From: Escherichia phage vB_EcoM_VR26
Sequence record: NC_028957.1
Direction: 5' to 3' (one strand)
DNA length: 64,000 nt
Shown here: positions 2,110 through 51,506 of the stretch, one piece after another
Layout of the letters: every line of letters begins with the position of its first letter
Position numbering within the stretch: the first letter of the stretch is position 1
Notes under the pieces: generated by a model
What the model was told of the DNA's origin: nothing
Database searches by the model: none
The model's input: only the letters and a program-made list of their open reading frames with translations
Made by a program: the position numbers and the translations under genes

Positions 2110-2535
2110 TTATTTTTGAGCTTTGCGGAAGTTGGAAGCATAAGACTGAACAACAGTCTTTTTGATATCATGGGTAGTAACCAGGACATCAATCAGAGCG
2201 CGGCGAGCGGCATTATCATTCATATCAATTTCTGCAAATGCCTGGAAGCAAATGTCACGGGCGTTACCAGATTTGGACTGGATTTTTTCTTCTTTAACTT
2301 CTTCAATTGGGAATTCAATCATTTCAGCTTGGATTAATTCAATGATGGATTCTTTTGACTGTTTGGTGTTTACCTTCAGTTCAGAATTAAGGGACTTGGC
2401 GATGGCAACAATCTGGGTTGAAGTCAGATGGATAAGTGCATCTTCACGAATGCAGATTTCACATACTTCGTCAGCAACCATTTTGTTAGTGATGCGGGTA
2501 ACAGAGAATGCAGAGGTCAGGGTCAGAAAGTTCAT
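2110..2535 (-). CDS. hypothetical protein, paralog of the 1583..2026 product
   Basis: 141-aa ORF, ATG with GGAG SD; C-terminus ARRALIDVLV...VQSYASNFRK shared with the adjacent gene. Confidence 0.5.
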   Translation of the reverse strand: MNFLTLTSAFSVTRITNKMVADEVCEICIREDALIHLTSTQIVAIAKSLNSELKVNTKQSKESIIELIQAEMIEFPIEEVKEEKIQSKSGNARDICFQAFAEIDMNDNAARRALIDVLVTTHDIKKTVVQSYASNFRKAQK

Positions 2536-2652: not shown

Positions 2653-2680
2653 AAAAAAGCCCCAACCTTTCGGGAGGGGC
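2653..2680 (-). terminator. rho-independent terminator after the T5orf172-domain gene
   Basis: Reverse strand reads AGCCCCTCCCGAAAGGTTGGGGCT followed by TTTTTT. Confidence 0.6.
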
Positions 2681-3339
2681 TATACCTTGTCGGGGTTCCA
2701 CCTGCAAGGCAAGTGTTCAAAATAGGGTGCGCCGTGAATACGACCACGTTGAACAAAGCCGTCATCTACTTTCATAGCAAGCAGGATGAAGTCCATAAGA
2801 CCCTGATTGATTGGTATTTCAAATTTCGTAGATTTAATATCTAATTTTTTAACTATGGAACTTATGTCATGAAAGAAAAACCATTCACCATTTATATGGT
2901 CCTGATTATAAATGCTGTGCATATATTTTTCAAGTTCTACTGCATCCTGGGAATATCTAAATGATACTATTTTAAAACTTTTAAAAGGTGAAAATGTATT
3001 TGCTGTTATAGCTCTAACATCGGGTTCTATACTTCTTCCTATTTTATAATAATTAGGATTTGTAGTGTCTACCATTATGTATACAAAAGCTTGTCGATAA
3101 CTTTTTTCTATGTCAAATTCATCTTTAAATTTCAAAAGATTTAGGGCAGCAGTCCTACAAAATACTCTCCATATCGACGAGCGTTTAGCTTCGGTCATCG
3201 AAAAGAATTTTTTCTTATCTATGATTTTAAGAAAAGCCACCTTTTCAATTAGTTCTTGTGTTATTTCAAAATTACCATGGTATATTAATCCAGCTTTTAT
3301 AGCCAAATTAATTTGGTCCCAGTCTACATCACTTCTCAT
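2680..3339 (-). CDS. T5orf172-type GIY-YIG domain protein
   Basis: 219 aa; C-terminal half carries FVYIMVD...YYKIGRS ... ELEKYMHS...HINGEWFFF, which matches the T5orf172/GIY-YIG pattern as I recall it; N-terminal ~90 aa unassigned. Confidence 0.55.
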   Translation of the reverse strand: MRSDVDWDQINLAIKAGLIYHGNFEITQELIEKVAFLKIIDKKKFFSMTEAKRSSIWRVFCRTAALNLLKFKDEFDIEKSYRQAFVYIMVDTTNPNYYKIGRSIEPDVRAITANTFSPFKSFKIVSFRYSQDAVELEKYMHSIYNQDHINGEWFFFHDISSIVKKLDIKSTKFEIPINQGLMDFILLAMKVDDGFVQRGRIHGAPYFEHLPCRWNPDKV

Positions 3340-3358
3340 AATATTATTCTCATTAATT

Positions 3359-3435
3359 TGGTCGGGGTGAAAGGATTCTAACCTTTAACCTGCGGTTTAG
3401 AGGACCGCTACTCTATACAATTGAGTTACACCCCG
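3359..3435 (-). tRNA. tRNA-Arg (anticodon UCU)
   Basis: Reverse complement folds as a cloverleaf: acceptor CGGGGTG/CACCCCG, anticodon stem GCGGT/ACCGC with loop CCTCTAA, T-stem AAAGG/CCTTT, encoded CCA. Confidence 0.8.
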
Positions 3436-3439
3436 TGTT

Positions 3440-3514
3440 TGGTGGCCCTTGCTGGTTTCGATCCAGCTACCTATCAGTTATGAGCTGACAGCTCTCCCAT
3501 TGAGCTAAAGGGCC
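3440..3514 (-). tRNA. tRNA with anticodon CAU (Met, or Ile2-type AUA reader by analogy with T4 tRNA-Ile)
   Basis: Reverse complement GGCCCTTTAGCTCAATGGGAGAGCTGTCAGCTCATAACTGATAGG...AAGGGCCACCA; 7-bp acceptor, anticodon loop CTCATAA, encoded CCA. Confidence 0.8.
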
Positions 3515-4435: not shown

Positions 4436-4621
4436 TTACTCACCTTTAGATATTTTATCCATAACGAAAGAGATTGAACCAATTAAGAATGCAACTACTA
4501 AAGAGATTGTATTCTCAGAAGTTGAAAGCATATTCAACATAAAGCCAGCAAACATGCTAAAACCAAAAGCAGTAACAGCAACAAGGGCAGTAACATTTCT
4601 AATTAATTCGCAACGTTTCAT
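4436..4621 (-). CDS. small hydrophobic protein, probably membrane
   Basis: 61 aa with two hydrophobic stretches; ATG with GGAG SD; early-promoter element directly upstream. Confidence 0.4.
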   Translation of the reverse strand: MKRCELIRNVTALVAVTAFGFSMFAGFMLNMLSTSENTISLVVAFLIGSISFVMDKISKGE

Positions 4622-4629
4622 TTTATTCT

Positions 4630-4678
4630 CCTCAGTAGTTGATGGGATAATTGTACACTATCCCATTCAAAAGTACAC
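4630..4678 (-). promoter_or_regulatory. early-promoter stem-loop element (PeSL-like)
   Basis: Reverse strand reads GTGTAC, 17 nt, TACAAT; inverted repeat GGGATA/TATCCC around the -10. Confidence 0.5.
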
Positions 4679-4912
4679 TTATTTTTTACGGAAAATTGAT
4701 TTATACTTGTTAGCCCATTTCTCGATAACTTCTGCCGGACCCTGGATAACAAAATAGTCACCAAACTCTTCACCGCCGAGCTGACCGTAATTATCTAAGG
4801 CGTCGCGGAGAGTTCCATAAGGCATTTCGCCCATTTTATCTTTCTTGCCAGTGTAAATGAATTGCACTTTAACATCAGCAGTTTCATTAATAAATTCTTG
4901 ATAAGTTTTCAT
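4679..4912 (-). CDS. internal head protein-like, with capsid-targeting sequence
   Basis: N-terminus MKTYQEFINE closely matches the T4 IP capsid-targeting sequence MKTYQEFIAE (gp21 L/I-x-E site); 77 aa. Confidence 0.6.
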   Translation of the reverse strand: MKTYQEFINETADVKVQFIYTGKKDKMGEMPYGTLRDALDNYGQLGGEEFGDYFVIQGPAEVIEKWANKYKSIFRKK

Positions 4913-4924
4913 GCTGTCTCCAGT

Positions 4925-4967
4925 AGTTGATGGGATAATTATACTGCAGTTATTCCATCATGTATAC
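4925..4967 (-). promoter_or_regulatory. early-promoter stem-loop element (PeSL-like)
   Basis: Reverse strand reads GTATAC, 18 nt, TATAAT; imperfect inverted repeat around the -10. Confidence 0.5.
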
Positions 4968-5210
4968 TTATTTTAAGTCTTCTAGGCGTTTTTTCATCTT
5001 GGTGCCATTCTTAGCAATTTCGCCTGCATCAGAACAAAGAGCAAGGAGAGCTTTAACTTTACCCTGGTCGCCTTTAAAAGATGATGCATCTACAGAATCA
5101 GCAAGTTCTTTGATGCGAGCAAACAGGCGCTCTGCTTCAGCAAGGGCTTGACCAAGTTTAACTTCCATACCATGGGAAGATTCTGTCATAAATGTTTGAT
5201 AAGTTTTCAT
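4968..5210 (-). CDS. internal head protein-like, with capsid-targeting sequence
   Basis: N-terminus MKTYQTFMTE; 80 aa; tandem with the other IP-like genes. Confidence 0.6.
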   Translation of the reverse strand: MKTYQTFMTESSHGMEVKLGQALAEAERLFARIKELADSVDASSFKGDQGKVKALLALCSDAGEIAKNGTKMKKRLEDLK

Positions 5211-5218
5211 TTGAAATC

Positions 5219-5491
5219 CTATTTTAGATAAATTGCATATTTTTTATACCCAGCTGTCTCATGGCGGAGACCCTTGTCATTGGCAAAACGCTCAATGTTA
5301 TTAATTTGGTTCTGGTCAAGTTCAGAGATGTCAAACGCGAAAAAGTTGCGTTTGTTACCAATTGTTATATGGTCAGTTAAGTCAATGCTGTACAGGTGAT
5401 TGATATTGTCAATCATAGCTTTGACTGCTTTACTAATTTTTACTTCTTCATTCAGTTGGGACTCGTTGAAAAGTTCATTAAAAGTTTTCAT
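5219..5491 (-). CDS. internal head protein-like, with capsid-targeting sequence
   Basis: N-terminus MKTFNELFNE; 90 aa. Confidence 0.55.
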   Translation of the reverse strand: MKTFNELFNESQLNEEVKISKAVKAMIDNINHLYSIDLTDHITIGNKRNFFAFDISELDQNQINNIERFANDKGLRHETAGYKKYAIYLK

Positions 5492-5499
5492 AAGAAACC

Positions 5500-5832
5500 T
5501 TATTTATACAGTTTAGCTAGTTCTTTACGTCCGCGAGCAGACATAATGAATTGTTCATCACCAATTTTGAAATAAGCCATACCGCCGTCAACAGCGATGC
5601 CAATTTCTTTAGTACCTTCTTTGCCTTTCCACTTGCCACCAGATTTCAGGACAGCTTCAACTGCAGCTTTGGAATATTTGGACGTTTGAAAACGTTCATT
5701 ACCAATCTGAAAGAAAACACCATCTGCGTTTTTGGATAAACCAAATTTCAGAGAGCCTTCACTATCATCAATTGATTTGGTCTCATTGATGGCGGATTCG
5801 GCTAAAAACTCATTATAAGTCTTGATGTTCAT
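5500..5832 (-). CDS. internal head protein-like, with capsid-targeting sequence
   Basis: Start placed at the ATG at 5832 (MNIKTYNEFLAE) after a GGAG SD; the upstream ATG at 5865 sits inside the promoter -10. Confidence 0.55.
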   Translation of the reverse strand: MNIKTYNEFLAESAINETKSIDDSEGSLKFGLSKNADGVFFQIGNERFQTSKYSKAAVEAVLKSGGKWKGKEGTKEIGIAVDGGMAYFKIGDEQFIMSARGRKELAKLYK

Positions 5833-5853
5833 TTTAACTCCGTTTGTTCGTTG

Positions 5854-5892
5854 GTGTAGGAACATAATACTGCACCTACACTCGTTTGTACA

Positions 5893-5893
<1 letters not shown>
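5854..5893 (-). promoter_or_regulatory. early-promoter stem-loop element for the IP-like gene array
   Basis: Reverse strand reads GTGTAC, 17 nt, TATTAT; inverted repeat GTGTAGG/CCTACAC around the -10. Confidence 0.5.
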
Positions 5894-6583
<690 letters not shown>

Positions 6584-6584
<1 letters not shown>

Positions 6585-7261
6585 TATATTACCTTATTAA
6601 TTTTATCAAAAAGTTCTTCGAGTGTGCCATCGTTTTTAATAACAATGTCACTAGCTAGTGGTGGAAGTCCAGCTTCCGTAATGTGTGTATCAGTAGAATG
6701 ATTTGCTTCATCGCGTTCTACAAAGATTATTGTAGCACCCATCGCCCGAAGCGAATCAAGTTCGTTCTTTTGGCGAACATCAGGGACAACGTAATATTTA
6801 TATCCAGAATAGAGGTTGTCAAGATAATCGCACGCAAAAGTTTTAATCCAAAACATGCTGTCGAACTCTGTACAAACGATGTCAGTTCCAAGGGTCTGCA
6901 TGAAACGTCTAACTGTCCAGGGCTCAACATTATTTAGTGTGTGAAATTCAATGATTTTACGAACCATATCTGGATTCGGAAGGTCAAGATTATATTGTTG
7001 TTTCAACCATTCAAGAGCATCAACCAGAAGAATATGAGCTTCAGTGTTGTTCATTATCAAGGTTTTTTCGCGGTCATAACCTTGTCCATCAAAATTTTCC
7101 AGGGTCAAATTGTGTGGCAGGTCTTGACGAACCCACGCTTTATAAAGCGCTTCTTTAATTGGACCAGCAAGTTGCCACTTTGTTCCGTTTTGACTAATAA
7201 CATAATCAGCAGTCGTATCTTTACCACTGCGTTTTTTACCCACAATCGCAATTAATTTCAT
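6584..7261 (-). CDS. 1: gp1 deoxynucleoside monophosphate kinase
   Basis: MKLIAIVGKKRSGKDTTADY P-loop and strong similarity to T4 gp1 as recalled. Confidence 0.9.
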
Positions 7262-37231: not shown

Positions 37232-37659
37232 TGCTTATTCTCCCTGAAGGTTACGAATTAACTCTTGAAAATATCGAAAGTATTTCAGAAGCAGCTCAGG
37301 GACAATTTGACTCATTATCCGAAGCCTTAGAAACGGACGATATAAATATTATTGTAGAAAACATGTTTGCCAACGGTGAGATTGAAAAAGCAATCGTTAT
37401 CGGTGCCCTGAATGAAGATATTCAGCTTGACGAATTTATCGTTAAACATGTATCGTCCCGCGGTGAATTAACCCGCACAAAAGACCGTGCTACTCGTAGC
37501 CGTAACGCTTTCCAGACAACCGGTCTTTCTAAAGCAAAACGTCGTCAAATTGCCCGTAAAGCTACTAAAACCAAACGTGCAAACCCATCAACGCAAATCA
37601 GAGCAGAGCGCAAGCGCAAAAAAGCTCGAGCTAAGCGTAAAGCATTCGGACTGAATTAA
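37231..37659 (+). CDS. 68: gp68 prohead core protein
   Basis: 142 aa, basic C-terminus; synteny. Confidence 0.8.
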
Positions 37660-38297
37660 TGGAACAGAAACCAGAGTTACTAATCGAACACTGGGGTCAA
37701 CCGGGCGAAATTAAAGATGGTGTACCGATGCTGGAATCACATGATGGTTCTGGCAGCGGTTTAAAACCAGGGCTTTATATTGAAGGGATTTTCCTACAAG
37801 CTGAAGTTGTCAACCGTAATAAACGACTTTATCCTAAACATATTTTGGAAAAAGCCGTTGCGGATTATATCGCCGAACAGGTTGAAACCAAGCAGTCACT
37901 TGGAGAATTAAACCATCCGCCCCGTGCGAACGTCGACCCTATGCAAGCCGCAATTATTATTGAAGAAATGTGGTGGAAAGGAAATGATGTATATGGACGT
38001 GCACGAATTATTGAAGGCGACCATGGCCCAGGTGATAAACTTGCCGCAAATATAAGAGCAGGTTGGATTCCGGGTGTATCTAGTCGTGGACTTGGTTCCT
38101 TGACTAAATCAGCCAAAGGTTATAGTATCGTCAACGAAGGTTTTAAATTGACGGTTGGAGTGGATGCAGTATGGGGGCCGAGTGCTCCGGACGCTTGGGT
38201 CAAACCGAAGCAGATTACAGAATCACAAACGGCAGTTGCCGATACCAGTGCCGATGACGCCTTTATGGCTCTCGCAGAGGCTTTAAAGACGTTATAA
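37659..38297 (+). CDS. 21: gp21 prohead core scaffold and protease
   Basis: 212 aa, same length as T4 gp21. Confidence 0.9.
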   Translation: MEQKPELLIEHWGQPGEIKDGVPMLESHDGSGSGLKPGLYIEGIFLQAEVVNRNKRLYPKHILEKAVADYIAEQVETKQSLGELNHPPRANVDPMQAAIIIEEMWWKGNDVYGRARIIEGDHGPGDKLAANIRAGWIPGVSSRGLGSLTKSAKGYSIVNEGFKLTVGVDAVWGPSAPDAWVKPKQITESQTAVADTSADDAFMALAEALKTL

Positions 38298-38329: not shown

Positions 38330-39148
38330 ATGCTTAAAGAACAACTCATCGCCGAAGCTCAGACCATCGATGCTTCCGTTGCTCTTGATAGTATTTTCGA
38401 ATCAGTTAATTTGTCCCCGGAAGCGAAAGCTACCTTCGGCACTGTATTCGAAGCTACCGTCAAGCAACACGCCGTTAAACTGGCAGAAATGCACATTCAG
38501 AAAATTGCTGAAAAAGCAGAAGAAGAAGTAGAAAAGAATAAAGAAGAATCTGACGAAAAAGCAGAGAAAAAACTGAAAGAATCCGCAGCTAAATTCCTTG
38601 ACCACGTTGCTAAAGAGTGGCTGGCAGAAAATAAACTGGCTGTTGACCGTGGTATTAAAGCTGACCTGTTCGAATCCATGTTTACTGGCATGAAAGAACT
38701 GTTTGTTGAGCACAACGTTGTTGTTCCAGAAGACTCTGTTGATGTTGTTGCAGAAATGCAGGAAGAACTGGAAGAGCAAAAAGCTGAAACCGCTAGTCTG
38801 TTCGAAGAAGTTTCTAAGCGTGATGCTTATATCAATTATGTCCAGCGCGAAGTTGCGTTGACTGAAGCGACCAAAGACCTGACCGAATCTCAGAAAGAAA
38901 AAGTTGGTTCTCTGGTAGAAGGTATGGATTATTCCGATGCGTTCGGTACCAAAATTGGCGCTATCGTTGAAATGGTTAAAGGTCAGGTAGACACCGCCGA
39001 AAAACCTATCACCGAAGCAGCTATAAATAATTCTGTAGACGATGCTGCGGCACTGAATTACATCTCAGAAGCAGTTGAAGAAAAAGGCGCCAAGCCTACC
39101 CTGTCCTTCGCGGACTTGTCTGCTCTCGCAGCATCACGAATTTCTTAA
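38330..39148 (+). CDS. 22: gp22 prohead core scaffold protein
   Basis: 272 aa, acidic coiled-coil; synteny. Confidence 0.9.
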   Translation: MLKEQLIAEAQTIDASVALDSIFESVNLSPEAKATFGTVFEATVKQHAVKLAEMHIQKIAEKAEEEVEKNKEESDEKAEKKLKESAAKFLDHVAKEWLAENKLAVDRGIKADLFESMFTGMKELFVEHNVVVPEDSVDVVAEMQEELEEQKAETASLFEEVSKRDAYINYVQREVALTEATKDLTESQKEKVGSLVEGMDYSDAFGTKIGAIVEMVKGQVDTAEKPITEAAINNSVDDAAALNYISEAVEEKGAKPTLSFADLSALAASRIS

Positions 39149-49779: not shown

Positions 49780-51279
49780 ATGGATATCAAAATCAACTTT
49801 TTAAATTTTAGTCATGTACATGTTGAATGTGAAGATAGTATCTTCTATGAACTCCGTGACTATTTCAGTTTTGAAGCCGAAAACTATCGGTTTAACCCTA
49901 AATTCAAAGCGGGAGTTTGGGACGGACGTATCCGTCTCCTGGATTATAACCGTAAATTACCGTACGGCTTAGTTAACCAGATTAAAAAATTCGCTGACCA
50001 GTTTGGTTATTCATTTTGGATTGACCCTCAAATCACCGAGAAAGAGGAAATCTCCCGTGTGGATTTCGATAAATGGGTCGAGTCAAAAGAAATCTATTCA
50101 GGCCATACCAAGATTACTCCCCATTGGTACCAAACAGACGCCGTATACGATGGTCTGGTCAACAGAAGAAAGATATTGAACTTACCTACGTCTGCAGGTA
50201 AAAGCCTCATCCAGGCGCTTCTGGCGCGATATTATCTCGAGAACTATGAAGGCAAGGTTCTTATCCTTGTACCTACAACTGCGCTCGTTGACCAGATGAT
50301 TAATGACTTTGTTGATTATAGATTGTTCCCTCGAGAAGCTTGTCTCGGTATCCGTTCCGGAACTAAACGTGATTCGGATGCAATGATTTATGTGTCTACT
50401 TATCAGACGGCAGTAAAACAACCTAAAGAATGGTTTTCACAGTTCGGTCAGTTTATGAATGATGAATGCCATATGGCTACTGGTAAATCTATTTCGACTG
50501 TTATCGAAGGCCTGACTAATTGTATGTTTAAATTTGGTCTCTCTGGTTCTCTCCGTGACGGCAAAGCAAACCTTATGCAATATATGGGTCTGTTTGGTGA
50601 TATCTTTAAACCAGTATCCACATCCCAATTAATGGATGAAGGACAAGTTACTGACCTTAAGATAAATAGTATTTTCCTTCGATATCCTGATGAATTCACC
50701 GTTAAAATGAAAGGCAAATCTTATCAAGATGAAATCAAGGTAATTACAAAAGCTACGCGTAGAAATAAATGGGTAACAAACCTTGCACTCAAGCTTGCTA
50801 AAAAAGATGAAAACGTCTTTTTGATGTTTAAGAATATCGAGCACGGTAAATCGATGTTTGAAATGCTTAAGGAAGCTGGTCATGAGAATGTGTATTATGT
50901 TTCCGGGGAAGTTGATACAGAAACACGTAACGCATTAAAGGTCATGGCAGAAAATGGAAAGGGAATTATCGTTGTAGCTTCATACGGTGTATTCTCGACG
51001 GGGATTTCCGTTAAAAACCTCCATCATATTATTTTCGCTCATCCGGTCAAGTCAAAGGTAATTGTACTCCAGACAATTGGTCGTGTACTTCGAAAACATG
51101 AATCCAAATCGACCGCAAACGTGTGGGACATCGTGGACGACATGGGGGTTAAACCCAAATCAGCAAACGCTAAAAAGAAATATGTTCACTTGAACTTTGC
51201 ACTGAAACATGCATTAGAGCGTATTCAGCGGTATGCAGACGAAAAATTCAATTATATCATTAAACAGGTGGAAATATAA
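49780..51279 (+). CDS. uvsW: UvsW DNA/RNA helicase
   Basis: 499 aa; Walker A PTSAGKS, DECH box, C-terminal helicase motifs. Confidence 0.9.
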   Translation: MDIKINFLNFSHVHVECEDSIFYELRDYFSFEAENYRFNPKFKAGVWDGRIRLLDYNRKLPYGLVNQIKKFADQFGYSFWIDPQITEKEEISRVDFDKWVESKEIYSGHTKITPHWYQTDAVYDGLVNRRKILNLPTSAGKSLIQALLARYYLENYEGKVLILVPTTALVDQMINDFVDYRLFPREACLGIRSGTKRDSDAMIYVSTYQTAVKQPKEWFSQFGQFMNDECHMATGKSISTVIEGLTNCMFKFGLSGSLRDGKANLMQYMGLFGDIFKPVSTSQLMDEGQVTDLKINSIFLRYPDEFTVKMKGKSYQDEIKVITKATRRNKWVTNLALKLAKKDENVFLMFKNIEHGKSMFEMLKEAGHENVYYVSGEVDTETRNALKVMAENGKGIIVVASYGVFSTGISVKNLHHIIFAHPVKSKVIVLQTIGRVLRKHESKSTANVWDIVDDMGVKPKSANAKKKYVHLNFALKHALERIQRYADEKFNYIIKQVEI

Positions 51280-51506
51280 TGAAGTCATTTGAAGAAATTA
51301 TGTATGAAGCGGCAATTGAAAGCTTCATGTCTAAGATAGGTTCTTGTCAGACCATGGACGGTCTGAAGGAGCTGGAAGGTTATTATAAAAAGCGCAGTAA
51401 AGAAGCTGAATTGAAAGATTCCGATGATATCAGTGTTCGCGATGCTCTAGCAGGTAAACGTGCCGAGCTTGAAGATATGGACGACGAAGAAGACGAAGAT
51501 TTCTAA
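51279..51506 (+). CDS. UvsW.1-like small acidic protein
   Basis: 75 aa, acidic C-terminus; start overlaps the uvsW stop. Confidence 0.65.
   Translation: MKSFEEIMYEAAIESFMSKIGSCQTMDGLKELEGYYKKRSKEAELKDSDDISVRDALAGKRAELEDMDDEEDEDF

Follow-up and report, generated by a model that had tools for sequence, protein, structure and literature searches.

Escherichia phage vB_EcoM_VR26 carries an array of four small internal protein (Ip) genes between genes 57B and trna.4. The array lies within a 64,000-nucleotide stretch of NC_028957.1 (64 kb; referred to here as the window). All four genes are on the minus strand, and each begins with a variant of the capsid-targeting sequence (CTS) leader of T4 Ips. 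We regard the four as Ip-family genes with high confidence. Three of them (ip6, ip5, and ip9) are already annotated as internal protein genes, and the fourth is an overlooked member. By analogy with T4, the array is likely a set of four interchangeable Ip cassettes whose products would be packaged, injected, and used against host defenses.

The first gene (4679 to 4912, minus strand) is of the ip6 type. It encodes 77 amino acids (aa) with the leader MKTYQEFINE. The second (4968 to 5210, minus strand) is of the ip5 type and encodes 80 aa with the leader MKTYQTFMTE. The third (5219 to 5491, minus strand) is of the ip9 type and encodes 90 aa with the leader MKTFNELFNE. The fourth (5500 to 5832, minus strand) belongs to the VR7 gp156 family and encodes 110 aa with the leader MNIKTYNEFLAE. 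Each of the four proteins has an exact match among public sequences. The first three are the consecutive vB_EcoM_VR26 accessions AIZ02786 to AIZ02788, and the fourth is AIZ02789, annotated there with 121 aa.

A first-pass annotation of this DNA, made from the sequence by a model, had described four tandem small genes with CTS-type starts, and these are present. They were the only four leader-bearing genes in a regular-expression scan that covered all 690 ATG-initiated open reading frames (ORFs) of 40 aa or more in the window. The same pattern scan of 50 shuffled windows returned no leader matches. The span that had been assigned to the array (4679 to 5893) contains the four genes and also takes in a promoter-like element upstream of the fourth. 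One loose leader match, at 51279 to 51506 (plus strand), was rejected because the ORF is UvsW.1. This protein starts with MKSFEEIMYE|A, which is loosely CTS-like and has a Glu-Ala junction, most likely by coincidence.

The probability that the array consists of chance or decaying ORFs with a coincidental common start is negligible. Their small size is compatible with that explanation and nothing else is. The empty shuffles and the results that follow refute it. Within the families of the array genes, the ratio of nonsynonymous to synonymous substitution rates (dN/dS) is 0.02 to 0.17, so the genes are real and constrained. The first three match PHROG "internal head/virion protein" families with E values from 3.3e-56 to 4.1e-41. 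The mature domains were each found in 54 to 493 phage records. A Shine-Dalgarno sequence stands upstream of every start (GGAG for the fourth gene; GGAG, AGGA, and AAGG for the other three). When the four proteins were scanned against Pfam and NCBIfam, only sub-threshold noise came back. Sequence searches against PDB chains with ip6, ip5, an Ip9 alignment, and a fourth-gene alignment gave no meaningful match.

The leaders can be compared with those of T4 at the positions that govern targeting and processing. T4 IPII and IPIII start with MKTYQEFIAE, and T4 IPI starts with MKTFKEFTST. The first 10 residues of IPIII suffice for encapsidation and can package foreign proteins (PMC9026906, PMC3012670). 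Targeting depends mainly on residues 4 and 7, and processing depends on residues 8 and 10 (PMC9026906). All four array leaders have an aromatic residue at position 4 (Tyr in ip6, ip5, and the fourth; Phe in ip9). Position 7 is Phe in the same three and Leu in the ip9-type protein. Position 8 is Ile in ip6, Met in ip5, Phe in ip9, and Leu in the fourth. Position 10 is Glu in all four. Position 11 is Thr in ip6 and Ser in the other three. The cleavage motif of the gp21 type, (L/I)-x-E, is therefore canonical at positions 8 to 10 in ip6 (INE|T) and the fourth (LAE|S), and the corresponding residues are MTE|S in ip5 and FNE|S in ip9. Canonical alternative gp21 sites occur in ip5 (LAE|A, residues 23 to 25) and ip9 (LNE|E, residues 13 to 15). 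The fourth protein has a second potential cleavage site, INE|T.

We compared these leaders with a wider set of 71 ORFs that carry the leader, taken from 27 IMG/VR loci and 4 GenBank loci, which included both ipI and ipII/III loci. The search pattern left positions 8, 10, and 11 free. Among the 53 distinct leaders, which come from 32 loci, position 8 was Ile, Leu, Met, or Phe in 51, position 10 was Glu in 49, and position 11 was Ala, Ser, or Thr in 50. The phage's own head proteins have similar cleavage sites, namely, LTE|A in gp23, LRE|S in gp24, and IAE|A in gp22.

The head-assembly genes gp21, gp22, gp67, gp20, and gp23 are in the window. The gp21 prohead protease gene (37659 to 38297, plus strand) matches Pfam Peptidase_S77 with an E value of 1.1e-101. 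The gp22 scaffolding core protein gene (38330 to 39148, plus strand) matches Pfam T4_CASP with an E value of 1.2e-89. The gp21 protease is the enzyme expected to trim Ip leaders, and the gp22 core is the expected leader target. The gene order is gp1, 57A, 57B, the four Ip genes, trna.4, and trna.3, which is exactly that around T4 ipI. The CTS determinants, the gp21-type motif (canonical at positions 8 to 10 in two of the four), the ipI locus, the presence of gp21 and gp22, and the PHROG families all agree with the internal protein identity that had been proposed.

The four genes had also been called divergent paralogs, and this description did not hold. After the leaders were removed, the 71 ORFs formed 17 clusters, and BLASTP found no similarity from one cluster to another (E value threshold, 1e-3). 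The array genes belong to four different clusters, and T4 Ip1, Ip2, and Ip3 belong to three others. The mature parts have no detectable similarity to one another or to T4 Ip1 to Ip3, and the leader is the only part in common. On these sequence comparisons, the four genes are cassettes with a common leader and not paralogs.

Contigs with an identical ip5 protein differ in their array contents. Their array products are 110, 90, 80, and 77 aa long (as here), 110, 90, 80, 84, and 73 aa, or 110, 90, 99, 80, and 84 aa. We aligned the window with VR25, ECML-359, and Yersinia phage P8 (YenP8). The fourth gene and ip9 are constant in this alignment and are followed by varied insertions and replacements. 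In the four aligned phages, the exchange junctions coincide either with the ATG and the DNA that codes for the leader or with a promoter/stem-loop element that is conserved. This leader-coding DNA forms a 29-nucleotide (nt) direct repeat (D2) with 76 to 83% identity. Judged from these alignments, diversity arises by whole-cassette replacement rather than point substitution.

Three intergenic spacers contain a promoter-like element with a stem-loop. Upstream of the fourth gene (5833 to 5892, minus strand), an early-promoter-like motif, TGTACA-17-TATTAT, at 5892 to 5864 overlaps a stem-loop. Its stem is GUGUAGG/CCUACAC (-14.1 kcal/mol; z score, -1.75). A second element is at the ip5/ip6 cassette junction (4913 to 4967, minus strand), with TATACA-17-TATAAT at 4966 to 4938. 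Its stem is weak (-9.1 kcal/mol; z score, -0.87). Its 24-nt core is 96% identical to positions 4633 to 4656 upstream of trna.4 (direct repeat D5), and the element is kept at cassette borders in VR25, ECML-359, and YenP8. The same element occurs upstream of trna.4 (4622 to 4678, minus strand; part of D5), where it forms the downstream border of the variable array. Its stem is AUGGGAUA/UAUCCCAU (-15 kcal/mol; z score, -2.3), and it is kept in all four aligned phages. Across the region, the count of promoters was not above the shuffled expectation. The fourth gene-ip9 and ip9-ip5 junctions have no such element, just a spacer of 8 to 9 nt and then the leader.

IP loci are known to have an early promoter and a weak AT-rich stem-loop at cassette borders, resembling the early promoter-stem-loop (PeSL) elements (Arbiol et al. 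2010, PMC2839356; Comeau et al. 2014, PMC4122927). The elements here match in the T4 early-promoter-like motif, the stem-loop, and the border position. Two of the four junctions of this array differ in having none. Those authors treat the IP-locus elements as analogues of the PeSLs of RB49 and phi1 rather than as homologues, and they credit the original observation of the IP-locus elements to Repoila et al. (1994) (PMC2839356, PMC4122927).

These features could also be read to mean that the proteins are not packaged. They would then be early cytoplasmic accessory proteins, and the leader DNA would be kept mainly as a recombination handle. The early-type promoter-like motifs and stem-loops ahead of the fourth gene and ip6 fit this explanation, as does the coincidence of the 29-nt leader repeat with exchange junctions. 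The Ip9 domain is also a leaderless early gene elsewhere (see below). We consider the explanation very improbable. The leader is conserved at the peptide level, with exchanges of Tyr and Phe, of Ile, Leu, Met, and Phe, and of Ala, Ser, and Thr, and with Glu at position 10, across 17 unrelated families. The conserved residues are those that govern targeting and processing experimentally (PMC9026906). The capacity of the first 10 IPIII residues to package foreign proteins (PMC3012670, PMC9026906) argues against it as well, and so does the end of the leader, which has the cleavage context of the phage's own gp23, gp24, and gp22.

The ip6-type protein matches phrog_8111 ("internal virion protein") with an E value of 1.8e-51. 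It is identical to the VR25 and VR26 "internal virion protein," gene ip6. Cleavage at INE|T, at the end of its leader, would give a predicted mature form of 67 aa with an isoelectric point (pI) of 7.8. The mature part was found in 229 phage records, and its dN/dS is 0.16 to 0.17.

The ip5-type protein matches phrog_3499 ("internal head protein") with an E value of 4.1e-41. It is identical to a VR26 protein, and its orthologue in ECML-359 is named ip5 and described as "similar to RB51 Ip5." It was found in 493 phage records, and its dN/dS is 0.03 to 0.04. The mature form is basic (pI 8.8 to 9.3) and is probably helical, judging by eye from the sequence. The names ip6 and ip5 are borne by the first and second genes in VR25, VR20, and ECML-359.

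ECML-359 (OL631482.1) contains two leader-bearing ORFs without annotation, in the gaps between ip9 and ip5 and between ip5 and trna.4. They are a divergent ip6 allele of 84 aa, MKTYQEFINEAADA, and a gp154-like gene that starts with MQTFHEFLVE, a leader variant whose Gln at position 2 evades the strict MKT pattern.

The ip9-type protein matches phrog_7673 with an E value of 3.3e-56 and is 78% identical to RB15 Ip9 (UniProt Q38376). It was found in 197 phage records. Its effector domain is residues 19 to 90. Structure prediction, a check that the first-pass annotation had named, was applied to ip9. AlphaFold2 gave a generic alpha/beta sandwich (pLDDT 76.6), and the fold matches were uninformative. 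The Ip7 protein of Escherichia phage OLB35 (P0039) has only its C-terminal ~35 residues (NQFNNIQRFANDKGLRHE..GYKKYAIYLK) in common with Ip9. Its N-terminal part differs and has no canonical leader as annotated, which makes it an intragenic mosaic.

The fourth gene is annotated with a different start in several relatives. The mechanical ORF reaches an upstream ATG at 5865. This codon falls within the promoter-like stem-loop, and no Shine-Dalgarno sequence precedes it. The ATG at 5832 has GGAG 5 nt ahead. The 121-aa annotation from the upstream ATG (MFLHQRTNGVKMNIKTY) is used in VR7, VR26, SP18, CJ20, and P479. It places the leader internally, which probably explains how the family escaped recognition as an internal protein. 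The protein matches phrog_3966 ("unknown function") with an E value of 1.2e-33. Its family was found in 54 phage records and is named "hypothetical protein" throughout the matches listed.

Nearly all close and distant relatives of the fourth protein start with MKT[YF]x[EDQ]F[LI]xE[SA]. In a profile search that covered 1.8 billion representatives exhaustively, the only matches were CTS-bearing relatives and one repeat protein. The canonical leader in the relatives thus identifies the fourth gene as an unannotated Ip. The protein here has an N-terminal MN extension, and the Gaprivervirus copies have Ile (ATC) at the position of the relatives' initiator Met. As read from the sequence, the ancestral initiator Met is now Ile in the Gaprivervirus copies, and translation begins two codons upstream.

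The mature part of the fourth protein is an internal duplication, and its halves align with 95% probability in hhalign (E value, 3.8e-8). AlphaFold2 predicted a leader helix and two tandem beta4-alpha units (pLDDT 76; pTM 0.63), which make up a Whirly-like domain. Independently, Foldseek placed MRP1/2 at the top and PURA high. We have moderate confidence in this predicted Whirly/PUR-like fold, which is that of single-strand nucleic acid binders. The fourth protein is much smaller than the known Whirly/PUR-like proteins (Trypanosoma MRP1/MRP2, Pur-alpha, plant Whirly p24/StWhy2, and SsgA). No Pfam, NCBIfam, or PDB family, PUR and Whirly included, gave a sequence match to it. The basic pI of the mature protein (9.3 to 9.5) is the only feature beyond the predicted fold that supports nucleic acid binding. 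A possible role of the fourth Ip is to bind single-stranded nucleic acid after injection, with the entering DNA or a nucleic acid trigger of immunity, rather than a nuclease, as its target. The repeat protein found in the profile search (P0041; 196 aa, from the representative library) contains at least three repeats of ~48 aa (GDEVWTLARNADGTYTPGERLQSRSS). Its match to the repeat unit in the fourth Ip has an E value of 3.5e-6. It could be a distant nonphage relative of the repeat or a compositional artifact.

T4 Ip1, Ip2, and Ip3 each inhibit one distinct type IV nuclease of the GmrSD family, without cross-protection (Silas et al. 2025, PMC12373910). The other Ips were explicitly flagged in that study as numerous and uncharacterized (PMC12373910). 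The earlier suggestion that the array genes are candidate injected antidefense effectors matches this standing view of the field (PMC12373910). Our literature searches found no characterization of Ip5, Ip6, or Ip9.

Under the cassette reading, the leader would bind the assembling gp22 scaffold core, and the protein would be enclosed in the prohead. The gp21 protease would then cut after [L/I/M/F]-x-E at positions 8 to 10 or at a nearby second site. The motif is seen in all four leaders, and the cut itself is predicted. Trimming would yield mature proteins of 5.5 to 10.7 kDa that are kept in the head with the DNA. As in T4, the Ips would be ejected into the cell with the DNA, ahead of any phage gene expression. 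There they would neutralize preexisting host defenses, and their targets need not all be type IV enzymes. Because injected proteins act ahead of phage gene expression, they would counter defenses that strike incoming DNA. The palette would be renewed by cassette swaps through recombination in the leader-coding DNA and in the intergenic promoter/stem-loop elements.

Alternatively, the proteins could be packaged and injected without a specific defense target and serve in charge neutralization, genome organization, or as an ejection aid. The basic mature forms of the fourth and ip5 proteins fit such a DNA-associated role, and so does the predicted Whirly/PUR-like fold, which is typical of nucleic acid binders. 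In T4, internal protein lysines touch DNA phosphates in the head (PMC3012670). In contrast, ip6 and ip9 are near neutral. The cassettes vary between near-identical phages, which fits arms race accessories better than a packaging need. Each of the three T4 Ips, the basic Ip2 and Ip3 among them, has a specific nuclease target (PMC12373910). Siphophages without a CTS system also carry the Ip9 domain, as an early gene of its own. Taken with these points, the alternative is unlikely.

The leaderless form of the Ip9 domain is a 72-aa protein found in about a dozen Kagunavirus-type siphophages of 43 to 45 kb, including BASEL Bas70, CR01, and JSSK01. The homologue in vB_EcoS_UTEC10 (WWY66496.1) is 51% identical over its full length to residues 19 to 90 of Ip9 (E value, 4e-30). 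Its gene is at 6488 to 6706 of PP291582.1 (2504 to 2722 of locus L032), a 44-kb genome. It has no leader at all, and an in-frame stop codon lies 45 nt upstream. The gene sits among small early genes beside replication genes. Some Kagunavirus records call the homologue "internal head protein" by homology alone, and there is no T4-type head-targeting system in these phages.

Kagunaviruses are reportedly very sensitive to restriction-modification (PMC11990801), which makes it probable that their DNA is not hypermodified. Since such a phage carries the Ip9 domain, a role of Ip9 as an inhibitor of modification-dependent nucleases or as a general antirestriction protein is unlikely. Its target is probably a defense unrelated to DNA hypermodification. 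The homologue suggests that effector domains were drawn from a wider phage accessory gene pool and then fitted with the leader. A tentative extension is that the Ip palette is a general preloading delivery system for unrelated effectors, not just for type IV inhibitors, and that these would include a Whirly/PUR-like protein that binds single-stranded nucleic acid after injection. We give this broader role a fairly low probability.

Packaging requires Ip protein at late times. There were 21 matches to the T4 late promoter motif in the window, versus 5 expected. The only perfect match inside the array, TATAAATA, is at 5501 to 5508 (minus strand), 10 nt ahead of the ip9 start. Because this match overlaps the YK-stop codons of the fourth gene, it may have arisen by coincidence. 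Another perfect TATAAATA is at 6802 to 6795, upstream of 57A. Late motifs with one mismatch occur ahead of the fourth gene, ip5, and ip6.

Several points weigh against packaging, injection, and antidefense as the function of the array. There is a single perfect late motif within it, and the early-type promoters are the clearer signals. The norm for gp21 at position 8 is Leu or Ile, and with Met (ip5) or Phe (ip9) there, canonical cleavage at that site is uncertain from the sequence. The fourth protein is longer by two residues at its N terminus. Our literature searches for virion proteomics or mass spectrometry of these Ips found none. The mature domains of the four proteins have no homology to IPI*, Ip2, or Ip3, so an anti-type IV restriction role is not transferable by homology. 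The occurrence of the Ip9 domain in restriction-sensitive siphophages speaks against a type IV restriction target for Ip9.

The array is bordered by two conserved anchor genes. Upstream is 57B (5893 to 6348, minus strand), which has the same position beside the Ip genes as in T4, next to ipI. It matches Pfam Acb1 (PF23474) with an E value of 1.2e-59. Many records call it "RNA ligase," yet the match to the Acb1 nuclease, which acts against cyclic oligonucleotide-based antiphage signaling systems (CBASS), is clear. As 57B is Acb1, the Ip array directly adjoins another antidefense gene. Downstream is trna.4 (4436 to 4621, minus strand), which encodes a hydrophobic protein of 61 aa and matches phrog_1692 with an E value of 1.4e-33. 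It is labeled "similar to T4 Trna.4" in relatives, and its position in T4 is identical. Beyond gp1 (deoxynucleoside monophosphate kinase) are ORFs that match gp3 and gp2 of relatives. There was no ipII/ipIII-type locus in the 64-kb window.

The best DNA matches to the locus are Gapriverviruses. TH40 is 97.4% identical over the whole 2 kb and is followed by VR25, ECML-359, SP18, and others. Some Gapriverviruses reportedly do not have the known enzymes for the synthesis of hydroxymethylcytosine or noncanonical bases and have kept homologues of Alc, DenB, DenA, and dCTPase (PMC8056088). The enzyme gaps together with the kept Alc and DenB imply an unidentified DNA modification. This modification bears on which modification-dependent nucleases the Ips might meet.

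Two other features lie farther from the array. The T4 tRNA cluster contains the homing endonuclease SegB; published work on SegB amplification does not deal with the Ip locus. In the window, a 219-aa ORF (2680 to 3339, minus strand) encodes MUG113/T5orf172 domains, which are GIY-YIG related. It lies beside tRNA-Arg (3359 to 3435) and tRNA-Met (3440 to 3514), and it may be a homing endonuclease-like gene. The adjacent ORFs at 1583 to 2077 and 2110 to 2535 (minus strand) encode 164 and 141 aa. They have a common C-terminal stretch, ..N.AARRA.ID..V......K..VQSYASNFRK.., and look like tandem paralogs.

The array is a textbook case of the hypervariable IP locus that T-even-type phages carry, and in this sense the finding is already known. 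Earlier publications cover the Ip class, its leader, its shuffling, and the antidefense hypothesis. The Ip class and its shuffling are traced to Repoila et al. (1994, EMBO J 13:4181), as it is represented in later papers (PMC12373910, PMC2839356, PMC4122927, PMC3012670). We took the definitions of Ip5, Ip6, and Ip9 from database names and these later papers. T4 Ip1 (IPI*), Ip2, and Ip3 have the leader, the gp21-type motif (atypical at position 8 in ip5 and ip9), the small size, and the head-assembly machinery in common with the array genes, and the locus of T4 Ip1 between 57B and trna.4 is the same. Ip5, Ip6, and Ip9 of the RB series are from the same gene families as the first three genes. 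Here they differ in being joined by a fourth family, in a Gaprivervirus. The additions made here are modest. They are the Ip assignment of the gp156 family, its predicted fold, and the leaderless Ip9 homologue.

More than 30 Ip variants have been reported. To our knowledge, only three Ips (T4 Ip1 to Ip3) have known targets. The array adds four further well-conserved candidates with defined boundaries for antidefense assays. For the VR7 gp156 family, it provides a corrected start and an Ip assignment, together with a fold hypothesis. It also reveals an Ip effector domain that circulates without a leader beyond the T4-like phages, which widens the range of plausible Ip targets.

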